Assembly: GCA_002269645.1 (NCBI GenBank)
Contig: NIVC01000084.1
Location: 620,001 to 684,000 of the forward strand
Length of the DNA stretch: 64,000 nt
Direction: 5' to 3'
Source: Macrostomum lignano
Lineage: Eukaryota
Position 1 is the first letter of the stretch, and every line of letters begins with the position of its first letter. A model generated the notes under the pieces. The model did not search any database, was not told the DNA's origin, and worked only from the letters and a program-made list of their open reading frames with translations. Positions 41,501-61,294 of the stretch are shown here, one piece after another. The translations under genes and the position numbers were made by a program.

Positions 41501-44500
41501 AGGAGAGAAGCCAGAGTTTAGACGGACGAAACTCCGCCTAGGCGGCAGGCCCAATCCAGCTCAGCCAATGAGAGAGCAGTAAGGAGAGAAGCCAGAGTTT
41601 AGACGGACGAAACTCCGCCTAGGCGGCAGGCCCAATCCAGCTCAGCCAATGAGAGAGTAGTAAGGAGGGAAGCCAGAGTTTAGACGGACGAAACTCAGCC
41701 TAGGGGGCAGGCCTAATCCAGCTCAGCCAATGAGAGAGCAGTAAGGAACGAGATCAAAGTCATTCCTAGTCAGTCGTACTTGGAATGCCCAGATGCGAAC
41801 AAGTATGTATTAACTCGTAATTGTGCCACCCCTTTTCTCTATTGTTCTCTATGCACGCTCACGGGATTCAGGCTTTTCAAGTTTTCTAGTAATCTTCAGT
41901 CTAATTAATTTATGACTGAATAATTTAGAGCCTGAGGCAATCAAAAGTCAGTAAAAGAAGGTAAAGACGCTAGTTTCAAGGATTTGCTTGTAAAATTCCT
42001 GTATTATAAGGAAAGACAAAAACGATAAATCTGTCTTTGAAAAAGAGTGGATAAGCCTCTTGTGTACTCGTATATCAATGAAATCGTTGTGACTTTCGAT
42101 GGAATCGTTGTGTATGCCGAATGTACGAGTTGCGTAAAGCCTATTGAATTTATTAAAAATCAAAACTGTATACATTTTGCCTTTAGTGCGACAACTGAGT
42201 CAGGGAGAATCGACTCGTCGCTTTTAGAGTTCAGGGGTAAGGCGCAACCTAGTTTGAGATTTTTTCCACCCATTTAAACTGCAATTTTCGGCTATAATAA
42301 ATGATTATGCATTGCATTCTTTCCCTCGCATTGCCCCAAGATTTATACTTTGGGTTTGGTCAGTGAAATAATTAATGTCATTACATTTATCAGGTCTAAA
42401 TGGGCCGTTATTTTATCTTCCCTGACCGAATCAGAAAATATATTGTTCTGTTATTAAGTCAAATGTAAATCTACTGGTGTTGCAGTTTTCTGTGTGTCTT
42501 TATGGTCATTGTGTCGAATTTTACAACCAATGAATCGCTCACTAATTTTCCATTATCGGTGGTTATGGGTTCGCTAACAGATATTTCAATCCTTACTTGA
42601 CAATAGTAACAATTAAAATATTTTCTTTCTATTTAATACAGGCACCGGAAAGACATCCACCGGGGTGATGCTCACTTACTGGTACGTCTTTGTCAATCGC
42701 TGCTTCGACGAAGGCCTGCTAGACGCTGACCAATCCGACAACCAGGATGACGATGACGACTTAAACGGCAACGTTATTGAAGACTCCAGCGCCGAGGCCG
42801 TGTCTATCAACTATTCCGAGTTCAGAAAAGAAGGGGATCCGGATGGGTCAAACGGGTCAGCCGAGGGTGGCGATGACGGCGAGTGGGAAGGCCTGGCCGA
42901 AGCTCTGCGGCTCAGCCTCGAAGACGCTGCCGAATGGAACCACGTTGGCACGAGAGGTCGCGTCTCCAGACGCTCGACCCAGAGTAGCGATTCATTCGCA
43001 GCGCTCTTTCAAAAGTCTTCTTCTTCGACGCCACTGCGACCGAAGCGCTACAATAAGCAAATGAAGACCGACGACAAAGAGCTGCAGACCCGTCGTCAGG
43101 TGTTGTACTGCGGCCCGTCGAACCGGTCTGTAGACGTTGTAGCCGAGTATTTGAAGAAAAAGCTTGATACCAAGTCTCCGGCCATTGTGCGCGTGTACAG
43201 CGATCAACTAGAGCAGAAGAAGTACCCTGTGCCTGGAGACGGACTCAACAGGAAGAACAATTCAGAATTCGGTGATGGAGACATCGATCCTATGATGCGG
43301 GTGAGAATGATGCGGGTACATGCAGTTTGGCGGTTAGGGAGACAGTTGAAGGGCACTGAGCTTGGATGGCGGGGTGGAAAGCCGTTATGCACAGTTTAAT
43401 GACCCCTGAGCTCACACCCGCACACAGATACGTACGCAATCACACGCTCACTCGGGGTGTACAGCAGTTCCGATTGTATCGCAGTCAGACATCGGCACAC
43501 AAATTCAAAAACGCAGAAGTACAAAAACTGATCTTTCAACTTAAGCTATTAAGACCTAAGTAGAATAAACCATATTCAACGCGATTCGAAACGTTTTTCC
43601 AGGAAATCGCTCTGCACGAGCTGATCCGGCAACAGCAGCGCAATCCGATCTCGTGGATTATTTTACTAGGCTTTGACGAGCTCTTTAAACGCTTCTTAGC
43701 TGAGAATAAGCACACCCAGAGGGCCTGGGTTCGCTCATTGATCCTAACAGCTAAGTCCAACTCGAGCTTTCACTCCTACTTGGAGCGGCTAGTTTTTGAA
43801 CTGCCGAGCAAGAAGCGCCGCCTAGAACAGAAAGTGATGAACTACACTGACCTACCAATTGGTTCGCTAGTAACAGCGTATAGGAACGTTTTATCTGCGG
43901 CTAAGCAACGCGTGCTGCAGCAGTTCGAAGTGATCCTGTGCACCACATCTGTGAGCTGCAGTTCAGTACTGCAGACAGCCTGCAAGTTCAGCCAAATCAT
44001 CATCGATGAGGCGGGCATGTGCACCGAGCCGGAGACCCTCGTGCCTCTAGTAGACTGCTCGTTCAACAGTACTGCAGCCGGTGCCAGTGGCAGTGCAAAA
44101 CGAGCTTCATACTTTGCCGAACGCCTGGTGCTGATCGGAGATCACAAACAACTTCGACCAATTATTCGGAATAAAACTGCTGAACAGCTCGGCTTAGGTG
44201 TGTCGCTTTTCGAGCGACACAGCCATCGGGCGATTATGCTGAGCTATCAGTACCGAATGGTAAGCGTAAATTTTGTTAAATACATTTTTAAATAGCAGAA
44301 AAATCAGCACAAACACTGCATAATTCATTCTGATGATTTAGTTTATCTGCAGGGATATGTTGATTTCCACTCAGCGTGCGCATGTCTGTGTTCTCATAAA
44401 TAGCTCTTGATACTCGAATATTTATTTATTACTTCAGTTAATGCGTTCATAGTTACTGTCACACAGATAGAATGTATATGTCCGACAGCATATGATGCAT

Positions 44501-46180
44501 TGATTATTCAATAATATCCCGCAGCACCCGAGCCTGTGCGAGTTCTCTGCCGACTACTTCTACCGCACTAGTAGGGCTCATCTGCAAACGCGACAGTCGC
44601 CATCTTGGACTGGACTTCAAGTTGACGACGTTCAGGACCCCGACCGCGAATGGAACGGCATTAACACTCATCACTTAGCCAGGCACTACGTGTTCGATTC
44701 CTACAACTTTCGCACTGAAGGCCGCGTCAGCGGTAAGCTGCGACTAGAGAACTCCAATGTGCTCATTGGCTGCTGGCCCGGAGTGCGCAGGCTGACTGAC
44801 TACCCACCCGACGGCAGCTGCCACGTCTACTCTTCGCACCGAGTTGTAAAGCCGACAGACCTGCACGTGAAAGGCGAAGAGGATCGCATTGTGTTCCTTC
44901 ACGTTGAGGGAGTCGAAGAGAAGACCACCGTGTCCACGGAAGAGGGCTCCGAGGACTCGCGTCGGAACTTGGCAGAAATTGACGAAGTGGTAATGCTCGT
45001 TATATTCCTTGGGCATCTTATAGTTGTTTACCGTTTAATCTAGCTTAACGAACGGTGTCACCACTTTTAGGTGAGGATCTACAAAGAAATTCGAAGGCGA
45101 TGCGAACGTCCTCGTCTGGCTAGCGAATCTGTGGCCGTGCTATCGCAGTACAAGTACCAAGTGATCAGCATTAGCGAGAAGCTTCGCGGTGAGGGCATCA
45201 AATCGCCTGTGGTGAAGACAGTCAACGAAAGTCAGGGTGAGTTCGAATCCAACAGAACCAATCATTGTATAATCCCATCGATGGTCCGAATGAGTTTGGT
45301 CGAGCCTTAAGAAAGCTTGTTAATCGATTAGAACTAAATGTTAGTTTTAAGCAAACCTTGGCGTGTTTGACTAAACTATTGAGTTCTTTTTCGTATGTTC
45401 ATAGGTAAGTTGCGTTAATATTGCGTAGTAAGAGCTATATGGTATTTATACTTGCATAGACTTTGATGTCATTAACGTCTTTCAGCTTCTCCATCTACAT
45501 CTATTGACAAAAGCAAGAGTTCTAAATGACGGCCAATGGTCCTAGATGTTTTTGGACAGTGTTAGTTTTCTGTATACTCGTATACTTGTAAATCTAAGCT
45601 GAAAAACATTTTTAATACATTTTTACAGGTAGCGAATTCGACTACGTCATTCTCTCCCTCGTGCGCTCGCTGCCCAACTTCGAAATTCCGAAGTCCCCGA
45701 TTCCAAGTTGGGAGCACAAGTATCTGGGATTTATTACCGATGCCAACCAGATTAATGTGGCGCTGACTCGAGCTCGCAGAGGCCTCATCATTATCGGTAT
45801 GCGCGACATCACTATTAAAGATCTTCTTAATTTGAACGGACACAGAATCAATTGAAAGTCACTCATGGGAAACGCCAAATCTTCATTACTATTTAGGCAA
45901 TCGGTTCCTGCTGCAAGCAAATCCGATGTGGAGCTCTCTGCTGTCCAGTCTGCAGAGTCGCGGCTGCGTTCCCGACAAGCCGGCCGACTTTCCCGCTAAA
46001 ACTGGCGACAAGCGCTTTTACACGCGCGACGGCAACGACCCGAAACTGTCGGGTCGCGGCAGCGGTTCGGCTAGGGCTTGGAATGGCGGCGGCGGACCGT
46101 GGAATAACAAACCGTACCAGCAGCAAGGCTTTAGGGCCATGGCGATGGATTTTCCGCAGTTGCATGGATCACCAAATTAG
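29557..46180 (+). CDS. HELZ2: HELZ2-like RNB (RNase II/R) exoribonuclease plus UPF1-like SF1 helicase, 15 exons, ~2,390 aa
   Basis: Hand-spliced exons, all GT-AG and phase-consistent: 29557-29822, 32482-32767, 33225-33649, 34059-34415, 34582-34838, 37044-37674, 37847-39807, 39901-40277, 40884-41078, 42642-43300, 43603-44259, 44525-44989, 45071-45236, 45629-45796, 45897-46180. RNB motifs TIDNPDTRDIDDAIS and HFTSPMRRYPDIVVHR. Helicase motifs GPPG|TGKT, IIDEAG, GDHKQLRP, QYRMHP, QGSEFD, NVALTRAR. Start uncertain (in-frame ATG at 29526 or an upstream exon). Symbol means HELZ2-like; orthology not tested. Confidence 0.85.
29880..32465. repeat. ~2.6-kb (CT/CTGT)-type polypyrimidine low-complexity tract, intronic
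   Basis: Direct observation; lies between donor at 29823 and acceptor at 32481. Confidence 0.97.
35234..36970 (+). mobile_element. Crypton-like tyrosine recombinase DNA transposon inside intron 34839-37043
   Basis: YR gene flanked by imperfect inverted repeats (ttttgcgggat...cccgga at ~35234-35279 versus 36929-36970), a 10-bp IR ccatagacaa/ttgtctatgg and a 17-bp direct repeat; exact ends uncertain. Confidence 0.7.
35416..36730 (+). pseudogene. Tyrosine recombinase (CryptonA/DUF3504-like) with one frameshift at ~35940
   Basis: Catalytic set R (ALRGGEEH), K (SKT), HxxR (NHSLRAT), H (TGHRS), Y (RCYKR). Frames 35416-35946 and 35822-36730 join as LVRES-LDAAMK if AG is restored in a gagag run. 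Confidence 0.85.
41365..41748. repeat. 81-bp tandem repeat (~4.5 copies) containing CCAAT motifs and palindrome CCGCCTAGGCGG, intronic
   Basis: agccaatgag recurs at 41401, 41482, 41563, 41644 and 41725. Confidence 0.9.
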
Positions 46181-47440: not shown

Positions 47441-47693
47441 CGCACATATTTCGCACTATTTCGTACATTATCTACTTCTATGTCTACTTGTATATGTACA
47501 TTAATCCCTATCTATCCCGATTCTATATGTACATTGTCTACTTGTAGATGTACACTGCATACTTCTATACTATATGTACTTGAGCATTAAACCCCCCTAT
47601 CTACTTCTATGACAATTTCTATATGTACAGTTGGGTTCACGGAAAGACACGATTTTTCTATGGAATCGTTCTGGAATTCTATAGAATTCTATA

Positions 47694-47828
47694 AGTAGTA
47701 GGGGAAATGTGGACTCTGCCGCAGGAATTTCCGTGGGAAAACCACGGGCCTATAGTGTGTAAACATAGCGCCTATGTAAATGCATTGGTGGACTCTGCCG
47801 CAGGGAAAGCCACGGAATTTCCATGGGG
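47694..47828 (+). repeat. Maverick left terminal inverted repeat
   Basis: Reverse complement of 59697-59831. Confidence 0.95.
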
Positions 47829-48698
47829 GGGGGGGGTCGGAGAGCGAAATATACGGGCTTTTCATATGACCGATTCCAGGACCAGAATCGGTTCGAAGCT
47901 TTTCATATTGTCTGTTCCGTTTTCATAGTCGGTTCCAAAACCGCGATCCGATTCTGGAATTCGGTTCGAGAAATTTTCTCGATCTTTTATCGTATTTCTA
48001 TAGAAACGAAAGGACGAATTTGAAATAACATTTCAAACATTTGAAAAGAATACTAGTTTCTAGATTTTAAATGAAAATGTTTTTATCCTTTGAGAAGTAA
48101 TTAAGCTAATTAGACAAAAAAAAGAAAAATTTGACGCTTTTCATTTTCCTACTACTCGATCTTCAATGAAAAAAGCCGAATAGAGCTCTATGTAAATGGA
48201 TTGGTGGACTCCGCCGCAGGGGAAAGCAGCACAAGTTCCTGGGAAGCCCAAAACTGACTCTCTAAAAATAGTAAAAAACTTCTCTAGTGTACATTAGCCA
48301 TAGTTAATTGAAAATTGGGCGAACCTGGCTTCCGATCTCCACAATATTTAAACTTTGTTGGCAGTGGGAATACATAGGCCTATGTTCATGAGTTCCTCCG
48401 CACTTTAGTACGAGTCTCGCAAACTGGACTGAATTTGTTGTGAAAGTGAGCTTGCAAAGCGCCGTTTATTGCCTTGTTATTGTTTTTCTTGATACTGCTG
48501 ATTTGGGCGCGGGGAAGTGGGGTGCAGGTCTGGGGTGGAGGTCTTTAAAACTAACTGATGCACGCGACGGGGGGAATGTTATCAGTTTTATTATTATTAT
48601 TGCTCAATAACGGTAAGAAAATAATTAGTGCATACACATATGTAACGTTTAAACATATCTGTATGTGTACATATAGGCGATATTGCCTGGTGATTTGG

Positions 48699-48708
48699 AT
48701 ATAAGGAC
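48699..48708 (+). promoter_or_regulatory. TATA-like box ATATAAGGAC upstream of the left-arm ORF
   Basis: About 100 nt upstream of ATG 48809; identical 10-mer upstream of the first right-arm gene. Confidence 0.5.
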
Positions 48709-48808
48709 TGAAAACTTCTACTGAGCCATTAAAATATATTTTGTTGAGATTTAAACGGACTTCGAAATTTCAAATTTTCACAAAAAACCCTTGATTAAAT
48801 TTTAAACC

Positions 48809-49720
48809 ATGAGCCATTCTCGGTGCCCATCCTACGTTCATGAGGTGTGTGTCACCTGCAATATTAGTATGCTCGGTGGACTAAAGCACCATGTAGCGAA
48901 TGAAGGCTGCAGTGTCACCCGATGGCTACTATGCCATGAATGCCAGTCCGTTGAGCTCTTCACCGTTAGAGGCCAAATCAAAAGGCATAAAAATCATTCG
49001 ACTGTTAATTGGAGCTCTGCTGAAGACCGCGAGCAGGCACGCATTACTGCTCTGGAAGTTGCACGTCAAGAGGAACGCAACAGGGCGGCAGAACGCATTC
49101 GAGACCCGGTGAGCACTTTGAGTCAAGTTATCACGAGCTTATGCGGCCGAGTAACGAACACTGGTGACCAGCCCAACGCCCAGCCTGCTGCTGCTTCTGC
49201 TGCTCTACTTGATGATGATGTCGGAGCTCCCCTGCTTGATGCTGCTGATGGAGGTGGCACCCCTGACTTCGAGCTGAATGAGCTGGACACCGCTTTCTTC
49301 GAGAACCTCGATGGTGAGCCTGAAGCACAGGAGCAGCAAGAAATGCAACAGCAGCAGCAGCGGCGTGCAATCCCTGTTCCCGAAAAAAATATGGAGCGTG
49401 CCAGGATGCTGGCAGAAGTCAGCCTGTCCGACGTGATTCGCGATATGGACTCGGGCCCTGCGCCTCCACCACCGCCGCCACCGACTGAGGTTCAGCCTGC
49501 GGTCGAAGTCAGCCTGTCCGACGTGATTCGCGATATGGACTCAGGCCCTGCGCCTCCACCACCGCCACCACCGACTGAGGTTCAGCCTGCGGCCGCTAAT
49601 GAAGTGCAGCAGCCAGCACCTCTCTGCATCCAGCTGGTTCTGCCCAACAGTGTTACGGGTGAATATTGGATTGACTTGGGAGGGGCTTTCCGTATTCGCC
49701 TGAGCAATTCTCAATTCTAA
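48809..49720 (+). CDS. Maverick accessory protein, 303 aa: N-terminal Cys/His cluster, acidic-hydrophobic middle, duplicated Pro-rich 30-aa repeat
   Basis: CVTC..HH..CHEC..HKNH; PDFELNELDTAFFENLD; EVSLSDVIRDMDSGPAPPPPPPPTEVQPA x2. No family recognised. Confidence 0.7.
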   Translation: MSHSRCPSYVHEVCVTCNISMLGGLKHHVANEGCSVTRWLLCHECQSVELFTVRGQIKRHKNHSTVNWSSAEDREQARITALEVARQEERNRAAERIRDPVSTLSQVITSLCGRVTNTGDQPNAQPAAASAALLDDDVGAPLLDAADGGGTPDFELNELDTAFFENLDGEPEAQEQQEMQQQQQRRAIPVPEKNMERARMLAEVSLSDVIRDMDSGPAPPPPPPPTEVQPAVEVSLSDVIRDMDSGPAPPPPPPPTEVQPAAANEVQQPAPLCIQLVLPNSVTGEYWIDLGGAFRIRLSNSQF

Positions 49721-49980
49721 ACTAATAATTCTAATGTACCAGTCGTTAAATATTAATTTAGCAACATTTTGTGTTGAATTAAATTGCGAGATGCATGATT
49801 ATCCGTATATTGAAAAAGTGAATAATGTTTATTTTTCTTTTCAACATCTCATCGCTATTTTTAAAGTTCATATTTATGCAGGCAGTGCGCGTTGATCAAG
49901 CTGTGCTTGGGTGTGAATGCAGATTGGGTTTGATTCTGGTTGGGTTTGCAATCTCCTTCTTTAACTTGTGCTTCTAATAA

Positions 49981-50904
49981 TGTAGCGAAGAACCTGTCTT
50001 CGCGGACTACATTAAGATGAATAGCGAGAAGCGCTCTATGGCGAAAAATGATTTCGAGAAGGATTTCTATAAACTGAAAAATAACTCCCTGTTTGGCAAA
50101 ACAATGGAGAACGTGCGCAAGCGGCGGGACATCAGAGTGTGCAGTGACAAGAAAAAAGCCAAGACTGTTTCTTCTCAACCAAATGTCGCATCATTCACAA
50201 TCATTACGCCGTCACTCAGCATCTTTGAGCTTCAAAAGCGCGAAGTAACTCTTGATCGGCCAATTTTCATGGGGCAGTGTGTTCTAGATCGCTCCAAGAT
50301 CATCATGTATCGACTTTACTATGACAAAATAAAACCCATGCTAGAATTCCGTGATGGAGCAAGAGTTCGAGTTTGCGGTGGCGATACAGACTCGTTGTTT
50401 TTGAGCTTAGAGAACCTTAGTTTGCAGAGAGAAGTGCTGCCAATCCTGCATGCCGAAGGCCTCTTGGACACCTCCAATTTTCTCACTAATCATCCTCCTT
50501 TCTCGAATCGGCTAAAGGCCAAGCTAGGCTGCATTAAAGATGAAGCTGGTGGACTGCAACAGATTGAGTGGGTGCTGCTAAGGCCCAAGCTCTATTCTTT
50601 CCTCGCTGAAAGCTCGGCGGCATGCAAAGCAAAAGCAAAAGGCATCCAACGAAGCGTGCTGAAGAATGAAGTCTCCCACGACGACTACGTCAAGATTTTC
50701 AAGGGGGCTTCAAAGCTGTCGCTCACTGTTCGTCGAATTGGAAGTGAGAAACATCGCGTTTTCACCATTGAGCAACGTAAGCTCGCTCTCAGTATCTGGG
50801 AGGACAAGCGAGCGTGGACTGGCTCGAATTCAAGTCTTCCGTTCGGCCACTTTCAGCTGTTAATCAGGGGTAGTCCGAAAAGGACAGCGGACTGCTTAGA
50901 GTGA
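49981..50904 (+). pseudogene. C-terminal fragment of protein-primed family B DNA polymerase (pPolB)
   Basis: EEPVFADYIKMN, motif B KLKNNSLFGKT, motif C GGDTDS, LGCIKDE, LRPKLYSF, KAKGI, DKRAW. In-frame stops immediately upstream (49975-49980); no motif A or exonuclease domain found in the element. Confidence 0.9.
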
Positions 50905-51620
50905 TGCTTTGCACATCTGTGTAACCTTGGCGTTGAAATTTATTGACTTTTACTTATGTACTCCATGAATTGTTTCAGTGGTTTAATTAATCTGAATGAT
51001 GATGATGATGATAATGATGGATGATGATGATAATGACAATGCTGGAACGAATAGAGCCAATTCAGTTAGTTACATATTTGTAGTCTCTAAGCAACTAACT
51101 GAGCGTAACATTTTCGAGTTGAGTTGTTCCAGATTTATTTCAATACGAACTTGTGAAAGCCATGTTGGAATAATTTGCGGCATATTGGTCTGGCTTTCCC
51201 TTTTTAATTATCCTTGAATTTTTGCACAATTGAATGAACTGAGTTACTGTCCTTTTTTATCTTTGCTAGCTTTGCTACTCATATTTTTTGTAACCATTAT
51301 CCAATGATTATCTGAAAAATATTGGCTTCCTTTTTCATTTCTGCTAGTTCTTGTTCGTTTTTATTTGTCTTAGCAGTGCATAATCTGAGTGATGGGTGTG
51401 CTTTTTTTCTTGAGTTGGTTGTGGTCTGATTAAATTTTCTATACTCAAACTAATATTGCGATTTCAGTTAATAAAATAAAGAAAAAGTCGATCGAAGTCT
51501 GATTTTCAGGTATATTGATTAAAATGCACGCATCTTAATACGTGGTATATGCATGCAAGATTATTATATTTTTGTTCAGCTGTCGTCTTTTTATTTAATT
51601 GTTGAAACATATGGTTATTA

Positions 51621-52184
51621 TTAGCACAGAAAACGGACAAGCAAGGAAAAGTCGGAAATTAGCATGCTCATTGTTTTTGCACCACTGAGAACGAATGAGC
51701 CATTGTGAAAAAGCAGGCATTTGCAGAAGCTTAGTTTGCAGATCAAAGCAGAAAATGACTCTGGCTCATATTGAGCACTTGGTAAAGTGTTCACAAGATT
51801 AGCGAGGGGAAGTGCTCTGCACAAGTCAATTTTCCCATGCGCAGTAAAAGTTTTAATCCGCACATGCACAGTTTGATGAGGCAGCAGTTGAGCAGGCACT
51901 CTGCGATGCAGCATAGCCACGAAGCGACGAGCGGCCCTGACTGAGGCCGAGTAGCTCCGGGCGCCACAGATACTCAGTTGTCCAGTCGGATAGAGCAATA
52001 GAGTCACTCTGGGACTCCGCATCCTCTTGATAAGCACTCGGGGCCAGACGGGGCGATAGATGACATGAGCCATGCTGAGAGCCAGTTCCCGCAGAGGCAA
52101 CTGGGCACCCCTGTCTCCAGCAAGTCTCAGATCCACGCCGCCGACCAGATTGGTCACTCGCAGGGCTGTCGCAGGTGTACTCAT
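51621..52184 (-). CDS. Divergent TATA-box-binding protein (TBP)-like protein, 187 aa, Maverick-encoded
   Basis: Both TBP repeats align by eye. [10 protein letters not shown]~[45 protein letters not shown]~[45 protein letters not shown]~[24 protein letters not shown]~LIFVSGKVVLTGAK. Confidence 0.88.
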   Translation of the reverse strand: [187 protein letters not shown]

Positions 52185-52698
52185 TTAGAGAGTCCTTTCT
52201 GTCAGTGGTGCTGTCTTTGCGAGCTTTTGAGTGGTGCGGGCACACCTCGCTTCTTAAGTTGATACAGAACTTCGGTTTCAGCCAGTTGTAGTACAGTAAT
52301 ACATTTTTCACTGCACAACCAGTATCAGATGCTTGAATCAAAGGTGATCCCAGATCCTCTAGGTTGTACACCTGTCTGCCAAGCAGCTCAGTCAGAAAGA
52401 TGGACTTTTTCACCCCGCTTGTCCAGGTGGGACCGTAAGCAATGTTTAGAATGTCATTAGCCAAATGCATGTACGGTCGGGATCCATCTGTCCACTTGAA
52501 ATGATGCAAATTCTTTGAGAGCTTTCTGTAATGTACTTGCATCTCAGGTGAGATTCTGTCCCATGAGAACGGAGAGGCGTACACGTGATGAGTGATATGG
52601 TAACTGCCAGCCCGGACTTGGGCAATGGCCAGCTCCTTCACAACGAAATCTCTGCTCGATCTCTCGCGTGGGAAGCCTTGGAAGTCAATATAGTTCAT
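51853..52698 (-). CDS. Maverick-associated DEDD/DnaQ-exonuclease-like protein; C-terminal tail overlaps the TBP-like ORF
   Basis: IDFQGF...FVVKELAI, SPFSW, HHFKWTDG, VYNLEDLG, CAVKNV pattern, recalled from Maverick accessory genes; fold assignment is inference. Confidence 0.55.
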   Translation of the reverse strand: MNYIDFQGFPRERSSRDFVVKELAIAQVRAGSYHITHHVYASPFSWDRISPEMQVHYRKLSKNLHHFKWTDGSRPYMHLANDILNIAYGPTWTSGVKKSIFLTELLGRQVYNLEDLGSPLIQASDTGCAVKNVLLYYNWLKPKFCINLRSEVCPHHSKARKDSTTDRKDSLNEYTCDSPASDQSGRRRGSETCWRQGCPVASAGTGSQHGSCHLSPRLAPSAYQEDAESQSDSIALSDWTTEYLWRPELLGLSQGRSSLRGYAASQSACSTAASSNCACAD

Positions 52699-52710
52699 GA
52701 TCGGATGGTT

Positions 52711-53433
52711 TCAAGACGCAAGATGTCGGGAAGCCGACTCAGTTCCCCTTCTTAAATAGTTTTTTTTCCTGCTCAGGTGTAGCCAGGCTCTCCCACTCCC
52801 GAATCCCTTAACTGTATGATGTGCAGGGGTGGTCTCTGGAGAAACAGCCGGTTTAGAAATTAGCTGCCTTACTGACTTTCCTATAGCCGAAGCTGGGATG
52901 TTAAGCTTTTTGTCTTGAAGCAATGAGACAAACTCACTCCAGCCTACCGGCTCGCTGGCACATTTCGAATCCCTCACCGCACTGTGAAACAAATCCAGGA
53001 TGTTTGAGGAGGGTATTGTCTTCCCAGAAATTTGCGCCTCGCCATTTTCGGACACCTGAATCAGAGAGGGATTGCCAGATAGGATGGCCCATAGACTGCG
53101 GGCTCTCGCTTTAAACTTCTGCGGCACGGATTGGGTGATCTTTTCCCCCCAGCTGCTTGGTGCAATATCTGTTTTCAGCATCTTTGCATCACTCGCAGGT
53201 ACCGCACCATCCTTTCCAGTCCGCTTGCGCTTGACCAGCAAACTCTTCATCGCATCATGGTACATGGCAGCTTTCACATCGTCTGGGCAATCCTCGGCAA
53301 GCAAAATATCATTGCATTTCCTCTGCGCATATCTCACAGCAGTGTCCATTTCAGACTCGACTGGCTTCAAATTCTGTGTGAGCATGTCGTACTCTGACTT
53401 GGGGATCAGAACCATTTCTGAGAACTTATTCAT
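52711..53433 (-). CDS. Conserved Maverick hypothetical protein, 240 aa
   Basis: MVLIP...KAAMY and GEAQISGKTIPSSNILDL...PVGWSEF...NIPASAIG pattern typical of a Maverick gene next to the ATPase; 8-nt overlap with the ATPase stop. Confidence 0.65.
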   Translation of the reverse strand: MNKFSEMVLIPKSEYDMLTQNLKPVESEMDTAVRYAQRKCNDILLAEDCPDDVKAAMYHDAMKSLLVKRKRTGKDGAVPASDAKMLKTDIAPSSWGEKITQSVPQKFKARARSLWAILSGNPSLIQVSENGEAQISGKTIPSSNILDLFHSAVRDSKCASEPVGWSEFVSLLQDKKLNIPASAIGKSVRQLISKPAVSPETTPAHHTVKGFGSGRAWLHLSRKKNYLRRGTESASRHLAS

Positions 53434-54442
53434 TTTGCTTCTTTTTCTTCACTAGCTTTATTAGAATGTAGAGAATTTTGATAAAACCCGTATTTAGCAG
53501 ATCCGCAGCTCTTCTATGTGTAGAAATTTTGCGGATTATTTGCTTTTGCTTCACCAGCGCTGCCTTTTGAGTGAGTGAGAACGACAGAGTGTTTTGCAAT
53601 AGGTTGTAGCAGGCCTCAATGAGAAATTCACGTACGGCTTTTGGACCCGCTCTGATCAACAGACGTTTAAAGCTGATGGAATATTTCGGTGACGCGAGAA
53701 CATCAAACAAACTTTCATGTGAGTCAAAGGTTTCCATTATCATTTGTGTTGCAGAATATAGAACAAATGGCAAATCTCGGCTGTTATTCTTAAGTGTAAA
53801 CAGGTGGGGTCGCTGATTGGGCAGGATTCGAGCCCGGACCCGCAGCTCATCAGGGGTGGAAGGGTGAAAATCCAGGAGCAGGTAGGCTCCCCTGCCGTGC
53901 GATGTCACGTGCTTGAACACTGACAGCAGAAATCCGGGCTTCTCAGCAAAGCACTGCCTGCCCAGCGCTGCAATCTGCAGCTGGTCTCTGGGGTTCTTCA
54001 TGATCACAAAGTACATCGCATTCAGACTCATTGTTCGCAACTCCTTCCCTTTAAAAAATACATTTTGGGTCAGCATAACCAGAAAGCAGGGCAAATGATG
54101 GGCAATTCCAGTGAAAACATTTCGCATTGCAGCAGAATTGGAAGTTTCTTCAATCAGGTCATCAAATACAACCAGGTCATTGGGTCTCAGTGCGGTCTCG
54201 ATACTGCTGGGAAATCCCTGCTGCAGGTGCACGCCGAGACTGCTGAGCTCAGAGTGTGCTGCTTGTGAAATCCCGTAGTACCACAGAACTCTCCCAGGCT
54301 TCACATCAAACAGGACATCCTTGTATTGTATCAGATGTTTCACGAAGGTTGTCTTTCCTGCATTTGTAGGCCCGCTGACAATCATGCAGCTTCCCTGTCG
54401 CAGGCGCACATCATAACAGTTTATCCGCTCACGTGTTTCCAT
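53426..54442 (-). CDS. A32/FtsK-like DNA packaging ATPase with ~110-aa basic C-terminal extension
   Basis: Walker A GPTNAGKT; Walker B LVVFDD; MLTQNVF; SLNAMYFVIMKNPRD; YLLLDFHP. Confidence 0.93.
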   Translation of the reverse strand: METRERINCYDVRLRQGSCMIVSGPTNAGKTTFVKHLIQYKDVLFDVKPGRVLWYYGISQAAHSELSSLGVHLQQGFPSSIETALRPNDLVVFDDLIEETSNSAAMRNVFTGIAHHLPCFLVMLTQNVFFKGKELRTMSLNAMYFVIMKNPRDQLQIAALGRQCFAEKPGFLLSVFKHVTSHGRGAYLLLDFHPSTPDELRVRARILPNQRPHLFTLKNNSRDLPFVLYSATQMIMETFDSHESLFDVLASPKYSISFKRLLIRAGPKAVREFLIEACYNLLQNTLSFSLTQKAALVKQKQIIRKISTHRRAADLLNTGFIKILYILIKLVKKKKQNE

Positions 54443-54475
54443 CGCCTGTTGAGCTAAATCCCTAATTTTGAAAGT

Positions 54476-54994
54476 CTAATTAAATTTCTTTTTTCTTAAG
54501 CAACTCTCAAACCTTTGCAGCATTCTCTCATTCAAGTGGCTCTGCTGATTTGCATGGAGGTGCCGCAGAACCCACTCAAACGAGCGCTTGAAACGAAACT
54601 TTTGATAGGCAAACAAGAGACAGAACAAACCGCATTTAGCAGAGTCACAGCTCTGAATTCGATTCACATTGCTACGTAAGTAGAATGGAGAATACCAAAA
54701 GGATTTCAGTGCTCTGTGAATGATCTCTAAAGTGCTGGAGTCCCAGCCCAGAGAGTTAAAGAGTTCTATGGAATTCTCCTTATCAGCATAACAAACCACC
54801 CAGTGACCGAAGGATGAGCTGTACTGAAGCAGAAAGAAAATAAACTTACATCGAGATAAATTTCTTTTGAGAGTTGCTCGCTGAATAAAGTTTAAAGCAT
54901 AAGATGTTTTATTTATTGAATTCAAGACAATAATTAAACAGTTATTTTGTGGCAAAAAGCTTTTAGCCAGTTTAAGCAGTTGAAAAGCATCCAT
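54476..54994 (-). CDS. Adenain-like cysteine maturation protease
   Basis: GHWVV (His), ELFNSLG, IQS (oxyanion Gln), KCGLFC (Cys); located between MCP and ATPase. Confidence 0.85.
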   Translation of the reverse strand: MDAFQLLKLAKSFLPQNNCLIIVLNSINKTSYALNFIQRATLKRNLSRCKFIFFLLQYSSSFGHWVVCYADKENSIELFNSLGWDSSTLEIIHRALKSFWYSPFYLRSNVNRIQSCDSAKCGLFCLLFAYQKFRFKRSFEWVLRHLHANQQSHLNERMLQRFESCLRKKKFN

Positions 54995-55017
54995 ATTAGC
55001 GTTGCGCCAGCGTACTC

Positions 55018-56301
55018 CTAGGATGGAAAATCTAACAGAATCTCCCTGTGCTTGGTGACCTCAATCAGTGAGTCATACAGGCACATAACAATCAGAGATA
55101 CAGGCTCCTCCAGGGCCTGTCGGAAGCGAATCTCCAGCCGCAAATTGCCCTCCTTCTGTCCGTACCACAGGGCCGCTCCCTCAGGCGTGAGATCGAATGC
55201 GAAAGCTGTGTTGCCGTTGGAGAACAACTGGTAGGGGACCCACGGAACCGAGTTGCTAGGGCTGGCTGACTGACAGCTTTTCAGGTAGTGCAAGTACTCT
55301 CTCACGAATGAATTATTCTCAGGTGCAAATGCAGCGTGGCACATGGCTTCACCACCTTTCTTTAGTGCTAGCTGGCTGAGGTTGAAGCTCTGGAACTCGA
55401 AAGGGCTGGAATGGTGATGGCCATTGAAGGCTCGGTGGTTCACGAAGACCAGCATAACGAACTTCGGCAGTTTGCCATGGGTGAATCCTTCAATGTTTTT
55501 TGACTGAATTCCCTGGGGTAGAATAAAGTTTTGCATTTCGGTTCGCTCGATGGGGTAGAGTGCGTTCTGATTGGTCAGTCCCTGTTCATGCGCCAGGCTG
55601 ATGTGAGGCGCCACTTTGACTCGGCGCAGGTTCAGAATGCAGTGGGAGATTTCCATTCGGTAGGCTGTGTTGTTATCATCTGGGGTTCGAATGGCGAATG
55701 CAGCATCACTGGGCATCAGCTTGATGTGCAGGTGTAAATTGTTCAGCAGCAGAACAGGACACTGGAAGATGTCGCTGAGCAGCGGTCCCGCATACTCCAC
55801 CCAGCGGGACTCCCTGTGTCTCTCGGCATGCCCCTCAGCAGCAGTTTCGGGTTCCAGGAATCCGGCGGGGTAGAACTTTAACTGCTGAGCATCGGATGAG
55901 CCCATGAGAGCTTTTAGGTAGGCATGGTAGGGGTAGAGCTGGTCTCCACCTGATACAATGCGCTGGTTGATGCTCACGATTACATCTGAGAATGCCGTAG
56001 ACAGGACAAAGTTTTCTGGGTGCACCCCACTGTCTCTGCGCTCAGTGACAACTCCATCGGCATTTCGAACCTCCTCCCTCATCAAAGCCCCGCCAAGCCG
56101 GACTAGGCGACAGCGAATATACAGGAATGAGCTCAGCAGATCAGTGTACTCATCAGCCGATGGATGACAGTCGAATTCAATAGGTGAGTTAGTAGCAATA
56201 GAGTTCACGGGGTGAATATCAACATATGTGGATTTTTCAATGGCAGTCTGCAGCATGGGGGACTTGAACAAATCGAGTCTCGGGTTGAATCCGTAAGCCA
56301 T
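55018..56301 (-). CDS. Double jelly-roll major capsid protein, 427 aa
   Basis: LDLFKSPMLQTAIE, SPIEF, LLSSFLYIRCRL, LSTAFSDVIVSINQ, YPYHAYLKALM, GKLPKFVML, SPFEFQSFNL, FAFDLTP, GNLRLEIRF typical of Polinton MCP. Confidence 0.92.
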   Translation of the reverse strand: MAYGFNPRLDLFKSPMLQTAIEKSTYVDIHPVNSIATNSPIEFDCHPSADEYTDLLSSFLYIRCRLVRLGGALMREEVRNADGVVTERRDSGVHPENFVLSTAFSDVIVSINQRIVSGGDQLYPYHAYLKALMGSSDAQQLKFYPAGFLEPETAAEGHAERHRESRWVEYAGPLLSDIFQCPVLLLNNLHLHIKLMPSDAAFAIRTPDDNNTAYRMEISHCILNLRRVKVAPHISLAHEQGLTNQNALYPIERTEMQNFILPQGIQSKNIEGFTHGKLPKFVMLVFVNHRAFNGHHHSSPFEFQSFNLSQLALKKGGEAMCHAAFAPENNSFVREYLHYLKSCQSASPSNSVPWVPYQLFSNGNTAFAFDLTPEGAALWYGQKEGNLRLEIRFRQALEEPVSLIVMCLYDSLIEVTKHREILLDFPS

Positions 56302-56303
56302 TG

Positions 56304-56714
56304 CTATGAGAGCGAGTCCAGAACACGTTTCACAGTCTTTTTGCTCACTTTTTGCTTTCCTTTGCCTGTTTTCTTGCTTTGAGTTTTAGACCTCCCTTTC
56401 TTAGGTTTATTTCGCCCTGACTGGCTTCTTTTCGGTGATTTCTCCGTCTTACTCTTTTTCTTCTTTTTTGTCTGCTTCTTACTGCCCTGTTTGACTAGTC
56501 GCTGCTTTGGTCTGTTTCTATTGCTTCTGCTGTTGCTGCTGCTACCGCTGGCGGTGGTATGGGCTGGCTTTGATAGCGATATTGACTTTGTGGAAGCTTC
56601 TGGAGGAGGCTGGTAAGTCATGATTCCTGGAAAACTCCCACAGCCATAGAGCGCCGGCTTTTGGCTTCCTGCCAGAGTCCCTGAATACTGACGAATCAGC
56701 TGTTGGTAGTTCAT
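56304..56714 (-). CDS. Basic Lys/Arg/Ser-rich putative virion core protein, 136 aa
   Basis: Strongly basic C-terminal half; LYGC-G fits the adenain cleavage consensus; ATGA overlap with the minor capsid stop. Confidence 0.6.
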   Translation of the reverse strand: MNYQQLIRQYSGTLAGSQKPALYGCGSFPGIMTYQPPPEASTKSISLSKPAHTTASGSSSNSRSNRNRPKQRLVKQGSKKQTKKKKKSKTEKSPKRSQSGRNKPKKGRSKTQSKKTGKGKQKVSKKTVKRVLDSLS

Positions 56715-57538
56715 TGTATTAGCCTTTCCCGAATATGAACTGTGAGCAGAACAGGGCTGCTGCTCCGAGCAGTCAGTGAGTAGCCAAAGATGTCACGCAG
56801 TTGAAATCTAATGCCATGTAGAAAATTAGCTTTCTGAATCGGGAAGAAAATTGCTTTCTTAAACACTTTGCTCATGTAGCTGCCCCATTCGACATCGGAT
56901 GACATGCTCACAGTTCGCAGCACGGAGTTCCAGTTACAGTTTGTTCGCTCCACAATGCTGCAGTGCAAGTTGATCAGGTTGGTGGGCGGACAACCGATGC
57001 AGCAGAGTGACACTTGCCGTCCGGGTGGGATCTTCACAGGCTGGTTTCCGAATCCCAGCCACTGCAGAATTTTACTTGATGGAAGGAACAATTCTGCTCG
57101 AGCCGTGTTGTTGAGCACTACTGTTCTCAACTCTTGGATTTCAAACTTTATGCCAATATCTCTAGCGCTGCTCCGCCCCATTAAACCGGACTCATCAGCT
57201 TCCATTTCAGACTCCCTTTCGCTCATTGCATCGAAGAACAGTGACTCAGAGTTGGCCAGCAGCTCATTCAGGCGTTCCACCAGTTCCTCCACTCTAGCAA
57301 AGCGTCCGGGTTGAAGAACCAGGGCCTCATGCTCTCTTCCATCTGAGACAGTGAAGCAGTAAGGCTCGTCAACATTGAACCATGCAGCAGGCAGATGGAT
57401 TTCAGCCAGACCTGCCTCATAGTCCACATTTCGATCCAAGTAAATAGATGAAGGCAGGTGAAAATGAAAGTCACTAGGAGTACCTTCAGCATTTTCGCTA
57501 CAAATGATGATGCTTCTCATAGTTGGGAATGGCTGCAC
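56711..57538 (-). CDS. Single jelly-roll minor capsid (penton) protein
   Basis: N-terminal S..N..TPSDFHFHLP..IYLD...YEAGLAEIHLP; C-terminal INLHCSIVE...VLRTV...IFFPI...IRFQLRDIFG. Likely ATG start at ~57520. Confidence 0.85.
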   Translation of the reverse strand: MQPFPTMRSIIICSENAEGTPSDFHFHLPSSIYLDRNVDYEAGLAEIHLPAAWFNVDEPYCFTVSDGREHEALVLQPGRFARVEELVERLNELLANSESLFFDAMSERESEMEADESGLMGRSSARDIGIKFEIQELRTVVLNNTARAELFLPSSKILQWLGFGNQPVKIPPGRQVSLCCIGCPPTNLINLHCSIVERTNCNWNSVLRTVSMSSDVEWGSYMSKVFKKAIFFPIQKANFLHGIRFQLRDIFGYSLTARSSSPVLLTVHIRERLIQ

Positions 57539-57550
57539 AATGTCGGTATC

Positions 57551-58630
57551 TTACACTTTTCTTAAGTCCTTCTCATCCACCCAGTCAGTGGACTTGTAGC
57601 CGGCCCACTTGACGAGATATCGGATCTTACCCTTCCGCTTCTCAGTCTTCAGAACCTTCTCGATTACATACAGCCGCTGCGAGTCCGGAACAGCTTGCAG
57701 CTCATGCTCGTGGAAGAGGCCTCTTATGTCTTCCCCCTTCATGTCTCGAATCCTGTACATGTAGGGATAATGCTTTGGTGCCCTAGACACTATGGTGTAC
57801 ACCTCTTCGCTCCAGTTCGCCTTGTATCCCTTCCTGAAGAGTCTGGGTGCATTGGAAATCCGCACTGATTGGTTTTCACAGAACTTCGGTTTTCTCAGTT
57901 TCTCAACTGTCTCAATCGCTTTCCCATCATAAAGGTTCATCCACACTTCAGTCTCGTTTGCTTTGCTGACATTCATTGGTGTAGTCTTGATGCTTCTGTG
58001 GAAAGTATTGTTATAGGACTTGACCAGTTTAGGCAGCACATCAAGCCATTGTAGAGTGCTGTTGTGAGTAAAGTAACGCCACATCTTGCTTTTTAAAGTT
58101 CGATTCCATCTTTCAATTATGGCTGCTTTGTGCACACTGCTAGTTGGAAACGCCAGAATCCCCCGGTCTATGCAGAACTGGCGAAAAATTGCGTTGACAA
58201 ACTCCTTTCCCTGATCTGTGCGGACAGTGCGCGGCTGCCGCTTTGAGCTCTTCAGCATGCTCTCAAACGCAGATTTCACTTCTGCCGCGCTCTTAGACTT
58301 CAGTGCTCTGGCCATTGCAAATTTAGACAAAACATCAATGCAGGTGAGAATGTATTTATGCCCGCGATTATACTTTGCAAATGGAATCATTTCCACCAGA
58401 TCCATCTCCCACTGATCATCAATGGCTCTCACTATTATTGGCGCCCTTGGAAATCGTACTCTAGCTGGCTTATGCAGAGTGTGTACTGGCTGCTGACTTA
58501 GCCACTGCTCAATGCTCTTGACTCCAATATGCTCGCCTCTTTTTCGCAGTTCAGGTTGCAGTTTTGAAGAACTGCAATAGCTCGCAGGCTGATTTGGGTT
58601 GAAATAAATTTTTTCCATTTTCGGAAACAA
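57551..58630 (-). CDS. Retroviral-like (RVE, DDE) integrase with C-terminal chromodomain, 359 aa
   Basis: DQWEMDL (D), LTCIDVLSKF, RTDQGKEF (D), IIERWNRTLK (E); chromodomain YVIEKVL...RYLVKWAGY. Confidence 0.96.
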   Translation of the reverse strand: MFPKMEKIYFNPNQPASYCSSSKLQPELRKRGEHIGVKSIEQWLSQQPVHTLHKPARVRFPRAPIIVRAIDDQWEMDLVEMIPFAKYNRGHKYILTCIDVLSKFAMARALKSKSAAEVKSAFESMLKSSKRQPRTVRTDQGKEFVNAIFRQFCIDRGILAFPTSSVHKAAIIERWNRTLKSKMWRYFTHNSTLQWLDVLPKLVKSYNNTFHRSIKTTPMNVSKANETEVWMNLYDGKAIETVEKLRKPKFCENQSVRISNAPRLFRKGYKANWSEEVYTIVSRAPKHYPYMYRIRDMKGEDIRGLFHEHELQAVPDSQRLYVIEKVLKTEKRKGKIRYLVKWAGYKSTDWVDEKDLRKV

Positions 58631-58783
58631 AGAAACATTTTTTTTTAGGTTTTCTTAAGACATTGAAAATGCATAGCGCATGTGAAAGCAAGCATATATT
58701 TTTTTTCAAACAAAGAGATGGAAAGCAGGTCTGGATAAATAGCTCGTAGCACAGAGTTTGTCTCAATGTCAGAGGGTCTGCAA

Positions 58784-59548
58784 TCAGTCGAAGCACGGCC
58801 TGGGCAGCTTCATGGCATCCAATCTGCGCAGAGCGAATGGCGGCTGCTTGCGTTTCCTGGCGTTCTCAGCGGCGGCTGTTTGAGCTCGGAACTGGTACCA
58901 GACTGGGTCCTCTTGCAGATCAGTGTCCTGCCGAGGAATCGCTCCAGCTGCAGGCTTGGTCAGTTGCAGAGGCGTTGAAGTGGCAAACGCTGTGTCGATT
59001 TGCAGATTGGATGGCATGCCAGCCTCGCCAGCAGCAGCAGCAGCATCGTCCTCCGCCTTCACTACCGGCTTGGTCTCTTCCGCGTTTTCGCCAGCATCGT
59101 CTTCATTTTCGATGCTGTCGGAGGAAGATCCCGACTCCAGCTCGTATGCATCGGAAATCTCACGTGGAGCCGATAGCTGCTCGTCGATCCAATCCGCGTA
59201 CTGCCACAGCTTTCGCCACAGCGGCGGTGTCAGCGGCACGGTGTTCCGCTTAAGAAACTCGTCGCAGCAGTCCTCCGGCAATCGCTTTAACCAGATAATG
59301 CCGTTTTTCACTTCGATGAACTTATCGAAGCCGAGTTTGACAACCTTTGGCTGTTTGTCCAAGGCCGCCTTGACAAGCGATCGCTTCAACTCCTTGAGCT
59401 TCTCCCACTGACGGATGTTCAAATTGAAGCCGGGGACTCCAGGTTTCAAACTCGCAGTGCTGCCATGTCGGTAAAATTTTCTGATAGCAATGAACATAAC
59501 TCCTTCATACTCCTGTATTTGGAGTTTATATCCTTCGCCGATGTCCAT
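58784..59548 (-). CDS. Tandem PC4(Sub1)-domain ssDNA-binding/coactivator-like protein, 254 aa
   Basis: IGEGYKLQIQEYEGVMFIAIRKFY...LKPGVPGFNLNIRQWEKLKE~PC4 [24 protein letters not shown]...[20 protein letters not shown]; second degenerate copy LGFDKFIEV...VPLTPPLWRKL...WIDEQL; acidic tail and RKRK. Confidence 0.82.
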   Translation of the reverse strand: MDIGEGYKLQIQEYEGVMFIAIRKFYRHGSTASLKPGVPGFNLNIRQWEKLKELKRSLVKAALDKQPKVVKLGFDKFIEVKNGIIWLKRLPEDCCDEFLKRNTVPLTPPLWRKLWQYADWIDEQLSAPREISDAYELESGSSSDSIENEDDAGENAEETKPVVKAEDDAAAAAGEAGMPSNLQIDTAFATSTPLQLTKPAAGAIPRQDTDLQEDPVWYQFRAQTAAAENARKRKQPPFALRRLDAMKLPRPCFD

Positions 59549-59621
59549 GACTTAAAATCTAACAGAATAAACTATCTCGTCGAAAAAAAATCGTTTTTTC
59601 ATGAATCAAAGAGATTTTTTG

Positions 59622-59631
59622 GTCCTTATAT
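59622..59631 (-). promoter_or_regulatory. TATA-like box ATATAAGGAC upstream of the PC4 gene / right-arm gene cassette
   Basis: About 75 nt upstream of ATG 59548; identical to 48699-48708. Confidence 0.5.
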
Positions 59632-59696
59632 AGACTAAACCACTGCAGCAGACATACAGCAATAGAAAAACATAGGCCTATGTTCTCTCACTAAGG

Positions 59697-59831
59697 CCCC
59701 ATGGAATTTCCATGGCTTTCCCTGCGGCAGAGTCCACCAATGCATTTACATAGGCGCTATGTTTACACACTACAGGCCCGTGGTTTTCCCACGGAAATTC
59801 CTGCGGCAGAGTCCACATTTCCCCTACTACT
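59697..59831 (-). repeat. Maverick right terminal inverted repeat
   Basis: Reverse complement of 47694-47828. Confidence 0.95.
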
Positions 59832-61294
59832 TCTATAGAATATTTGTTCCTATTGGTTGAAGCGCGGCCAATTGGGAGAGAACAGACAGCCTCCCCCACC
59901 AAACCGCAACAGAGAGAGAATGACACGGTGGGGTGACAGTTGACAGTCAAAAGGCTTGTATACATTGCCAAGCTGTATCAGTAGACTCAGCTGTGAGATT
60001 CTACTCACCATTAGAGTGTGCCAGTCGGTATCACCCGCAGAAAGAATCGTGTCTCTAGATTAATCCGCTTTCCAGAGATTCGAAGGGGCGATTTAGGAAA
60101 ATTCAACACAACGCGCGACAACCCTAAACTCAATTTATTTAATAAAACAGTATATACACGTATAGTAGAATAGCAACAATAAATGAAGCAATACAATTCC
60201 TCCCCTTCTATGTATTGATTTGAAACATAAATACAATTACCTTGTAAACATGTTATATACATGTATGTTAAGAGCATCGGCTGCATCTCCAGGCACCAGT
60301 ACCTGCAGGTCAGCACCCAACGCGAACTGTAGTTTCTGCAACTCAGGTGACGAAACTAATTACCACCGTATCACTTTGTCAGCATCTGTCCCGCTTTCAC
60401 TAGAGACAGACTCACTTATACCAGACTGCACAATCAATTATTGAAGCGTGCAAACCCGAAAAATTTCATTTAGCTAGCTACATATTCGGGCCTGGGGGAC
60501 ATGGGGACCACTGGGGACCTCGCTGGGCAGCGCCAACCCTCCATCCATATAGCGACTTAGCGCTGCAGCTATGTCAAGTAAGTCAAAGTCATATCGTTAA
60601 AACATTTTATATTTCATGTCTTCGAGCGTCATGAACGCAAAAGGAAAGTACATGTAAGGATTTGTGTAAAAATCTGGATAAAGAACAAACAAAAACAAAA
60701 ACAAAAAAGGACGTGCAAATTCAAAAGATTTTTTTTCAATACAATCTAAATAATAAACATTTTGATCGCCAATTAAAGATGCACATGAATGTCATTTAAA
60801 ATCAAATGATATGACATGTACGAGCATTTATTACTTTTTAAAGATAATAGAAAAAATGATAATGAGGCTCAAAACAATATCCAAGATTACTCGATTTAAA
60901 AAAACTAACCATAAATAAGGATGGCGAATAAAGCCACTAGATTCAACGCATTTTGTTTGAATATGCAATAAGATGCTTATTACGAACCATTAATATTATC
61001 ATCAATACATCATAAATAATTTTATAAATATTGTCAAAAACTAAAATTAAACAAAAGGTCGAAAAATGACTTACTTTACTATAGTAAGTTTCATACACCA
61101 ATAGCTTGTGTAAGGAAACACCAACAGAGAAATCAACGTTTTTCAACTTTTAAAAACCAGAATAGTGAAAATGTAGGTAACAAGGGCCATAAAACTTTGC
61201 CCTGGAAACGTACGAGAGCGATGGTATGTAATCATATACTCTTCCGGCTTCCGAATATCGGATTCAGTTCAGACGTCTATTTCTTTGGAGGCGG

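Follow-up and report, generated by a model that had tools for sequence, protein, structure and literature searches.

A TBP-fold protein predicted from a Maverick/Polinton of Macrostomum lignano, and a candidate variant TATA box upstream of the element's genes

A Maverick/Polinton of Macrostomum lignano was found to carry an intact gene (51621..52184, minus strand) whose product is, as judged from profile matches and a structural model, a two-lobed protein with the fold of the TATA-binding protein (TBP). Most genes of the element's cassette are preceded by a TATA-like box with G at position 6, and sequence comparison leads us to favour, with a probability of roughly 0.6, the reading that a viral-type TBP with altered DNA specificity would recruit host TFIIB and RNA polymerase II (Pol II) to the element's own promoters. 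Positions refer to the window, that is, the whole stretch of 64,000 nucleotides that was analyzed.

Results

The element spans 12,138 bp (47694..59831, ~12.1 kb; no strand assigned) and was delimited by its AGTAGTAG termini, by terminal inverted repeats (TIRs) of ~135 nt at 47694..47828 (plus strand) and 59697..59831 (minus strand), with ~97% complementarity between arms, and by a target site duplication (TSD), TCTATA, at 47688..47693 and 59832..59837 (both plus strand). TIRs with AG(T) termini and a 6-bp TSD are hallmarks of Mavericks/Polintons, and both were present, along with the gene set of such elements. The copy is non-autonomous, with most of the protein-primed DNA polymerase B (pPolB) missing: a C-terminal remnant (49981..50904, plus strand), convergent with the TBP gene, retains a frame of 307 aa, compared with 1,220-1,312 aa in many sister copies, whose pPolB frames matched PF03175. 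Also on the plus strand, the first gene from the left TIR (48809..49720) encodes a Cys/His- and Pro-rich protein of 303 aa for which no profile match was obtained, with GATATAAGGAC ~110 nt upstream.

On the minus strand, the first gene from the right TIR (58784..59548) encodes a PC4/Sub1-domain protein (PF02229, 26.8 bits, cut-off 25), followed by a retroviral-type integrase with a chromodomain (57551..58618; PF00665, E 2.5e-16; PF00385 below cut-off). The PC4/Sub1-domain protein, a second product related to general transcription, was encoded both by the family of the window copy (family A) and by a second family, B (L045:8895-9500). Farther along the same strand lie an ORF without profile match (56711..57520), which we take from its size, its place in the gene order and recall to be the probable minor capsid protein; a basic ORF of 136 aa (56304..56714), possibly a core protein; and an ORF (55018..56301) presumed on the same grounds to encode the probable major capsid protein (MCP), which had no profile match, fits in size and order, and is conserved across families (40% identity to family B, 29% to a third family, C). 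The Adenain-type cysteine protease (PRO, 54476..54994) passed the PF00770 cut-off (22.6 vs. 21.3 bits). In the packaging-type ATPase (53426..54442) a P-loop was seen, every profile match being weak and below cut-off; its frame continues in the window copy into a small gene (start 53737) with its own start and box, which forms a separate ORF in sister copies. A conserved element ORF of 240 aa (52711..53433; 31% to family B), presumably PZ-like, gave no profile match. Finally, a 281-aa ORF starting with MNYIDFQGF (51853..52698; IDFQGF ORF) overlaps the N-lobe of the TBP gene with its last 110 codons, in another frame; there was a weak Maelstrom/DEDD lead for its product (Atlas lead 0.88), no Pfam or fold match, and a poor model (pLDDT 49.6).

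Two inverted segments of a host RNB/AAA_11 gene, presumably HELZ2-like (43868-46104 and 61653-63903), flank the element, which lies in the spacer between them; they are distinct from its TIRs, and one 484-nt arm is 99.6% identical. Elsewhere in the window were found a DUF3504 plus phage-integrase ORF split over two frames (35455-36730), which we take to be a Crypton-like tyrosine recombinase, an open copia-type gag-pol of 1,320 aa (24017-27979) and, at 7485-~20500 and 29500-32700, a satellite with a 41-bp unit in ~311 copies and a pyrimidine-rich repeat of strong skew.

The TBP-like gene encodes 187 aa corresponding to the TBP core only. Two stretches of the protein matched PF00352 (E 3.3e-21; 75.3 bits vs. 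a cut-off of 22.9), ten NCBIfam TBP models matched below their cut-offs, and all 35 distinct sequence matches in the PDB were TBPs or TBP fusions. An AlphaFold2 model built on a 9-sequence alignment (pLDDT 88.8) superposed on solved human, plant, yeast and archaeal TBPs with TM values of 0.77-0.84 (0.81-0.84 for ranks 1 and 3-6); structural matches in BFVD, including giant-virus TBPs, reached TM ~0.7 at 7-20% identity, and cellular TBPs superposed better. The preliminary description of this DNA, which had recognized an intact, intronless ORF with two TBP repeats inside the TIRs, was borne out by the paired PF00352 stretches, the modelled saddle and the bounds of the element, and the profile and fold check that it proposed returned both a match and a saddle fold.

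A total of 152 genome matches to the family-A TBP were obtained, of which 150 were listed, and 150 of 235 candidates were scored. After 52 listed family-A matches covering fewer than 170 residues were dropped, 98 near-full-length matches remained among those listed. Within this set 94 were free of stops, so the ORF is intact in other copies of its family, where the earlier account had named its absence or disruption as a ground for refutation, and 89 of the 98 had a convergent pPolB match within 3 kb; such insertion counts are overstated perhaps threefold, because host TBP and TRF2 were each present on three contigs. In the 36 pairs formed by nine family-A subtypes, analyzed for each half of the gene apart, dN/dS of the N-half was 0.07-0.22 in 35 pairs and 0.43 in one close pair, and that of the C-half was 0.04-0.29 in the 21 estimable pairs, 15 being saturated. 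In the C-lobe, where no other frame overlaps, pN was 0.11-0.31 against a pS of 0.59-0.85. Within Mavericks, the TBP has been under purifying selection over the long term. The high divergence of the C-lobe goes together with saturated dS and a sharp breakpoint, and diversifying selection as its cause was therefore discarded.

The TBP of family B is 32% identical to that of family A and had 24 near-full-length matches, of which at least 12 have an integrase or pPolB match nearby; in the one family-B copy examined the cassette order was the same as in family A. That of family C, 20-22% identical to A, passed the PF00352 cut-off and gave 83 genome matches, 26 of them full-length and stop-free at 99-100%. 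The family-C gene (L084:1874-2428, L085:872-2290) has no ATG and is preceded by a polypyrimidine-AG, a sequence context suggesting that it is probably spliced. In L085 it lies in one frame with a deoxynucleoside kinase, and family-C elements also carry dUTPase and PLA2-like genes.

In two phylogenetic trees, both built without NCLDV TBPs, families A and B formed one clade (support 91 and 94) apart from host TBP and TRF2, and family C occupied a very long branch of unsure place. The element TBP shares 27% identity with host TBP, and this divergence, together with purifying dN/dS and the separation in the trees, argues against a recent neutral host retrocopy, an origin that the preliminary description had named as fatal to its proposal. 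Close homologues of the element TBP were found in Logan, ENA and JGI contigs. A group of short core-only TBPs (P0025, P0088, P0093, P0120, P0121, P0175-P0196), placed near the Maverick clade with weak support, carried the N159-to-T change in 13 of 13 aligned sequences, and may represent Maverick TBPs of other animals. No relative was detected in the viral contigs scanned; a metagenome scan yielded 26 loci, whose listed ORFs resemble ordinary TBPs of cells, mostly of archaeal type, none with a match to element genes.

In order to describe the surfaces of the protein, residues were read at the 16 DNA-facing positions of yeast TBP (PMC12529657, Table 1). Yeast numbering is usable here because host TBP has the yeast residue at all 16 positions. 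Nine are changed in the element TBP, namely F99, A101, F116 (Y), V122 (S), T124 (C), N159 (T), V161 (T), P191 (S) and T215 (S), and N69, V71, L114, F190, L205, F207 and V213 are kept. Among the four intercalating Phe of canonical TBP, F190 and F207 are retained in the C-lobe (F144 and F159 of the element protein), as is the YEPE motif, all as described previously. The earlier reading of W/Y at the equivalent N-lobe positions was correct for F116, which is Tyr, but W47 lies off the first Phe position: F99 corresponds to P48 in an ungapped alignment, which fits the strand boundaries of the model, and to L51 in a second alignment, neither register giving W. The symmetric Asn pair N69/N159 is broken, with N12 kept and N159 replaced by T112, invariant in families A and B. 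The KTF reported in place of the second NxV motif does occur in the window copy, yet it is copy-specific, being shared with one identical copy only, and the other 39 of the 41 family-A loci read have KTI; moreover, the counterpart of the Asn is T112 and not the K.

Positions E186/E188 constitute the TFIIB signature, which viral TBPs, often paired with a viral TFIIB, have mostly lost (PMC7221094). Their equivalents in the element TBP, E140/E142, are invariant in 9 of 9 aligned proteins of families A and B and are D/E in family C; Y65, C73, K111-T112, E140-P141-E142 and F144 are invariant in the same nine. The basic helix-H2 patch (TFIIA, Mot1, NC2, Brf1) is partly kept in family A and lost in family B, and the family-C protein lacks N69 and has D at E186. 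No element-coded TFIIB was found, the 15 PF00382 matches in the genome being low-copy and none lying on a multi-copy element. In established structures the C-lobe of TBP reads positions 1-4 of the TATA box and the N-lobe positions 5-8. On that basis, the change V122S/T could make room for G at box position 6, and the change at P191 could relax position 1.

The best 7-mer before family-A gene starts was TTAAGAA; any 7-mer covering at least five genes appeared in 4 of 300 random start sets. Sense copies of [AT]TAAGAA fell in the zone 30-150 nt before a start in 7 of 7 cases in the window cassette (zone 16.5%), in 5 of 5 in subtype L077, and in 7 of 7 in the held-out family B (zone 16%, P 2.7e-6), the last figure being the fair test because the start of the small gene and the 150-nt bound were set after the family-A hits had been seen. 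Antisense copies numbered 1, 1 and 0, respectively. Coding sequence contains six of the in-zone boxes, which fall in different frames, and none of 3,000 synonymous recodings produced more than 3. Counted across the entire window, the 7-mer was barely enriched (17 vs. 10.6 expected), the signal residing in position and strand.

The boxes, all on the minus strand, were located at 52251..52257 for the TBP gene (TTAAGAA, at a distance of 73 nt from the start and lying within the upstream ORF, with the same bases in all family-A subtypes read), at 52749..52755 for the IDFQGF ORF (57 nt), at 53787..53793 for the small gene (56 nt before its start at 53737; kept in L072-L075), at 54493..54499 for the ATPase (57 nt), at 56856..56862 for the basic ORF (148 nt, as in L077; 139 nt in family B), at 57559..57565 for the minor capsid ORF (45 nt) and at 58652..58658 for the integrase (40 nt). 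No box was found upstream of the PRO and PZ-like ORFs, and for the MCP of the window copy there was only a near-match, CCTAAGAA, ~100 nt upstream; with these exceptions, and with the integrase having a box, the set does not amount to a clean late class. A canonical TATA box, TATATAAG, lies 84 nt before the PC4 gene (59625..59632, minus strand); it is the only TATAWAWR on the coding strand of the cassette and is kept in L077. In family B a canonical TATAWAWR precedes the TBP gene. Another candidate, ATAAAC, was discarded as the box of the window element, since it precedes only 1 of 11 starts examined.

No [AT]TAAGAA was found in the zone in family C, where the box TATAAG[CT]A (TATAAGCA) had 5 of 6 and 4 of 6 occurrences in it, the pattern having been found de novo on the same two loci that were scored. 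The boxes of the three families (CTTAAGAA in A, YATAAGAA in B and TATAAGCA in C) can all be described as TATA with G at position 6. In the TBP-less control, a single AT-rich pPolB element of another family (L086, L087), in which no TBP-like ORF was found in 15.9 kb read on either side of a 1.6-kb gap inside pPolB, 1 of 8 hits lay in the zone; several genes of this element have A-rich TATAAAA-type boxes just before their starts. Two further loci tried as TBP-less controls (L080, L081) were discarded, as both carry a TBP and belong to family C, and a pPolB locus with neither TBP nor recognisable capsid module (L088, L089) was uninformative as a control. Contigs from four presumed-RNA runs cover the element and contained no credible splice joint; contigs of this kind cannot show transcription, strand or starts.

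In each of the 12 family-A loci read, the IDFQGF frame was open over the entire TBP N-lobe (51853-52184) and ended at the I-K of the second lobe. At the 13-16 third positions where it would create a stop, T never occurred, compared with 35-39% elsewhere (P ~0.001 per sequence, the sequences not being independent). In family B the overlapping frame was open to codon 129 in L045 and had one stop, at codon 90, in L033 (P 0.05-0.07). A recombination breakpoint was located at the lobe junction (~51860-51890, TBP codons 100-110): L020 and L022 were 91-100% identical to the window copy from 53683 to 51884, and then ~70% in the C-lobe and 65% in pPolB. The same step in identity at the junction was present in 8 of 10 pairs tested, and the lobe chimeras stay intact. 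Subtypes exchange sequence at this junction, so that the N-lobe stays linked to the capsid arm and the C-lobe to the pPolB arm.

Discussion

Under the favoured reading, host TBP would first read the canonical TATA boxes (that of the PC4 gene in family A, that of the TBP gene itself in family B); the element TBP would then bind [CT][AT]TAAGAA, a form of the TATA box that carries G at position 6 and is less strict at positions 1-2; once on the box it would recruit host TFIIB and Pol II; and the recruited Pol II would drive the integrase, capsid, ATPase and related genes. As the family-A TBP gene has the variant box, positive feedback would follow, and by the same token something else must start the cascade, a point that counts against the scheme. 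Host TBP might also read the boxes of families B and C, because wild-type TBP has been crystallised on the single variants G(-26) and T(-30) (titles of PDB entries 1qn5 and 1qna) and these boxes are one or two bases off consensus. DNA binding by the element proteins may in turn be weak or different, because the N-lobe lacks the first intercalating Phe and family C lacks N69 and has D at E186. Altered specificity, if true, predicts that the TBPs would prefer their own G6 boxes (CTTAAGAA, TATAAGAA and TATAAGCA) and host TBP TATAAAAG. Altered specificity and a TFIIB decoy were the two mechanisms offered in the preliminary description; the first gains indirect support from the variant box, and the second gains none beyond the kept glutamates. 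A wider proposition, held tentatively and at somewhat less than even odds, is that a dedicated and old TBP lineage has been overlooked in many animal Mavericks and forms with the G6 box an orthogonal one-protein switch acting on host TFIIB and Pol II, the box co-varying with TBP family and the lobes being swapped.

TAAG is the late start motif of baculoviruses. In one alternative, the box is real but is read as a TAAG-type start motif by a helper-virus polymerase, or by TBP, TRF2 or a germ-line factor of the host, the element TBP doing other work. Binding of wild-type TBP to single-base variants in crystals (PDB titles) and the reactivation of integrated virophages by a giant virus (PMC8547959) are compatible with such a reader. 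We regard it as unlikely, since the box changes with TBP families A, B and C and shows no enrichment in the single TBP-less element; the usual 34-73 nt to the ATG would, in addition, fit a -30 element plus a short leader. Somewhat less probable is that the element TBP does bind the box but represses, keeping integrated copies quiet or timing replication or packaging: autorepression would be consistent with the box before the family-A TBP gene, and family B has lost the basic patch on helix H2 that serves TFIIA and other cofactors (PMC7221094), yet the residues contacting TFIIB, for which a plain repressor has no use, are kept.

Slightly lower again do we place the view of the protein as a decoy, or as a dominant-negative TBP, which would sequester TFIIB or TBP regulators of the host and thereby dampen host transcription or defence. 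The invariance of the TFIIB glutamates on a protein with a changed DNA face, the loss of the first N-lobe Phe and the swapping between subtypes of the C-lobe with its TFIIB stirrup would all suit a decoy. TFIIB, however, binds TBP mainly on DNA, and a decoy has no need for N12, V14, F144 and F159 or for the same DNA-face changes across proteins that are 32% identical; it leaves the box unexplained, and dN/dS is purifying rather than diversifying. As for a captured host gene, whether a neutral passenger or one kept only by the overlapping frame, the stop-free second frame over the N-lobe in all family-A subtypes read would be expected from it, but the identity to host TBP of 27%, the position apart from host TBP and TRF2 in both trees, the constraint on the non-overlapped C-lobe (pN 0.11-0.31 vs. 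pS 0.59-0.85) and the retention of a TBP by three Maverick families speak against it; this origin, very improbable in our estimation, is largely refuted by the selection and copy data.

For Mavericks, the ordering of gene expression and the trigger of the capsid genes in integrated copies are open questions. With a TBP and a named candidate box, Maverick control can be put to the test using a single small protein and an oligonucleotide of 8 bp, and the three families of one genome, with their different TBPs and boxes, amount to a natural experiment on the re-coding of TBP specificity, as well as offering a possible orthogonal TBP-promoter pair. The favoured reading would also place a transcription strategy resembling that of herpesviruses in an element of middle size that lacks its own RNA polymerase and TFIIB. 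Were the wider proposition true, no smaller viral late-gene system would be known than the one-protein switch, which would supply the control step that has been missing between the silence of an integrated Maverick and the production of particles.

Comparison with known systems

Virus-coded TBPs are known from herpesviruses, NCLDVs, poxviruses and mirusviruses (PMC7221094, PMC12529657, PMC10132985), and a TBP is mentioned in a non-Polinton algal element (PMC10675990). Among Polinton-like elements the TBP described here is not wholly new: a TBP label in the legend of Fig. 5 of the work on MELD viruses and adintoviruses (Starrett 2021, PMC8502044; preprint 10.1101/697771), standing in a section on non-animal datasets, precedes it. 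Those elements, which have an adintovirus-like PolB, share the Maverick gene set with the present one; the main text of PMC8502044 contains no TBP analysis, promoter box or Macrostomum, and the terms are absent from the one supplement available. In the available text of a nematode Polinton preprint (10.1101/2023.08.22.554363) TBP and TATA do not occur, and in that of PMC12220804 they occur only as a reference-list artefact. A literature search confined to openly accessible text returned no paper on animal Maverick TBPs or on a matching box.

With cellular TBP (in the host at G000:C70, C713 and C1301) the element protein shares the two-lobed saddle, N69, V71, L114, F190, L205, F207 and V213, and the equivalents of E186/E188, whereas it differs in its identity of 27%, in consisting of the core only, in nine DNA-facing changes and in being multi-copy within a mobile element. 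TRF2/TBPL1 (in the host at G000:C350, C3090 and C3513) is likewise a TBP paralogue with lost Phe (PMC10005294), yet it groups with the cellular TBPs and not with the Maverick clade, and identity is 23-30%. The TBPs of NCLDVs, poxviruses and mirusviruses have in common with the element protein a virally encoded TBP fold (PMC7221094, PMC10132985); in large dsDNA viruses the TFIIB contacts have diverged, often in the presence of a viral TFIIB (PMC7221094), whereas in the element the glutamates are kept and no TFIIB was found.

A further comparison is with ORF24 of KSHV, representative of beta- and gamma-herpesviruses, which is a virus-coded TBP fold acting with host Pol II on a non-canonical box (TATTWAA), much as proposed for the element TBP, and in which A101, V122, T124, V161 and T215, five of the element's nine changed positions, are changed as well (PMC12529657). 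ORF24 differs in its 752 aa, in binding Pol II directly, in requiring five more viral factors and in keeping all four Phe (PMC12529657); the element TBP, by contrast, has 187 aa, comprises only the core and keeps the TFIIB stirrup, and no matches to the partner vTAs of the ORF24 type were found in the element. The element TBP would appear to work like ORF24 without being a member of the ORF24 type.
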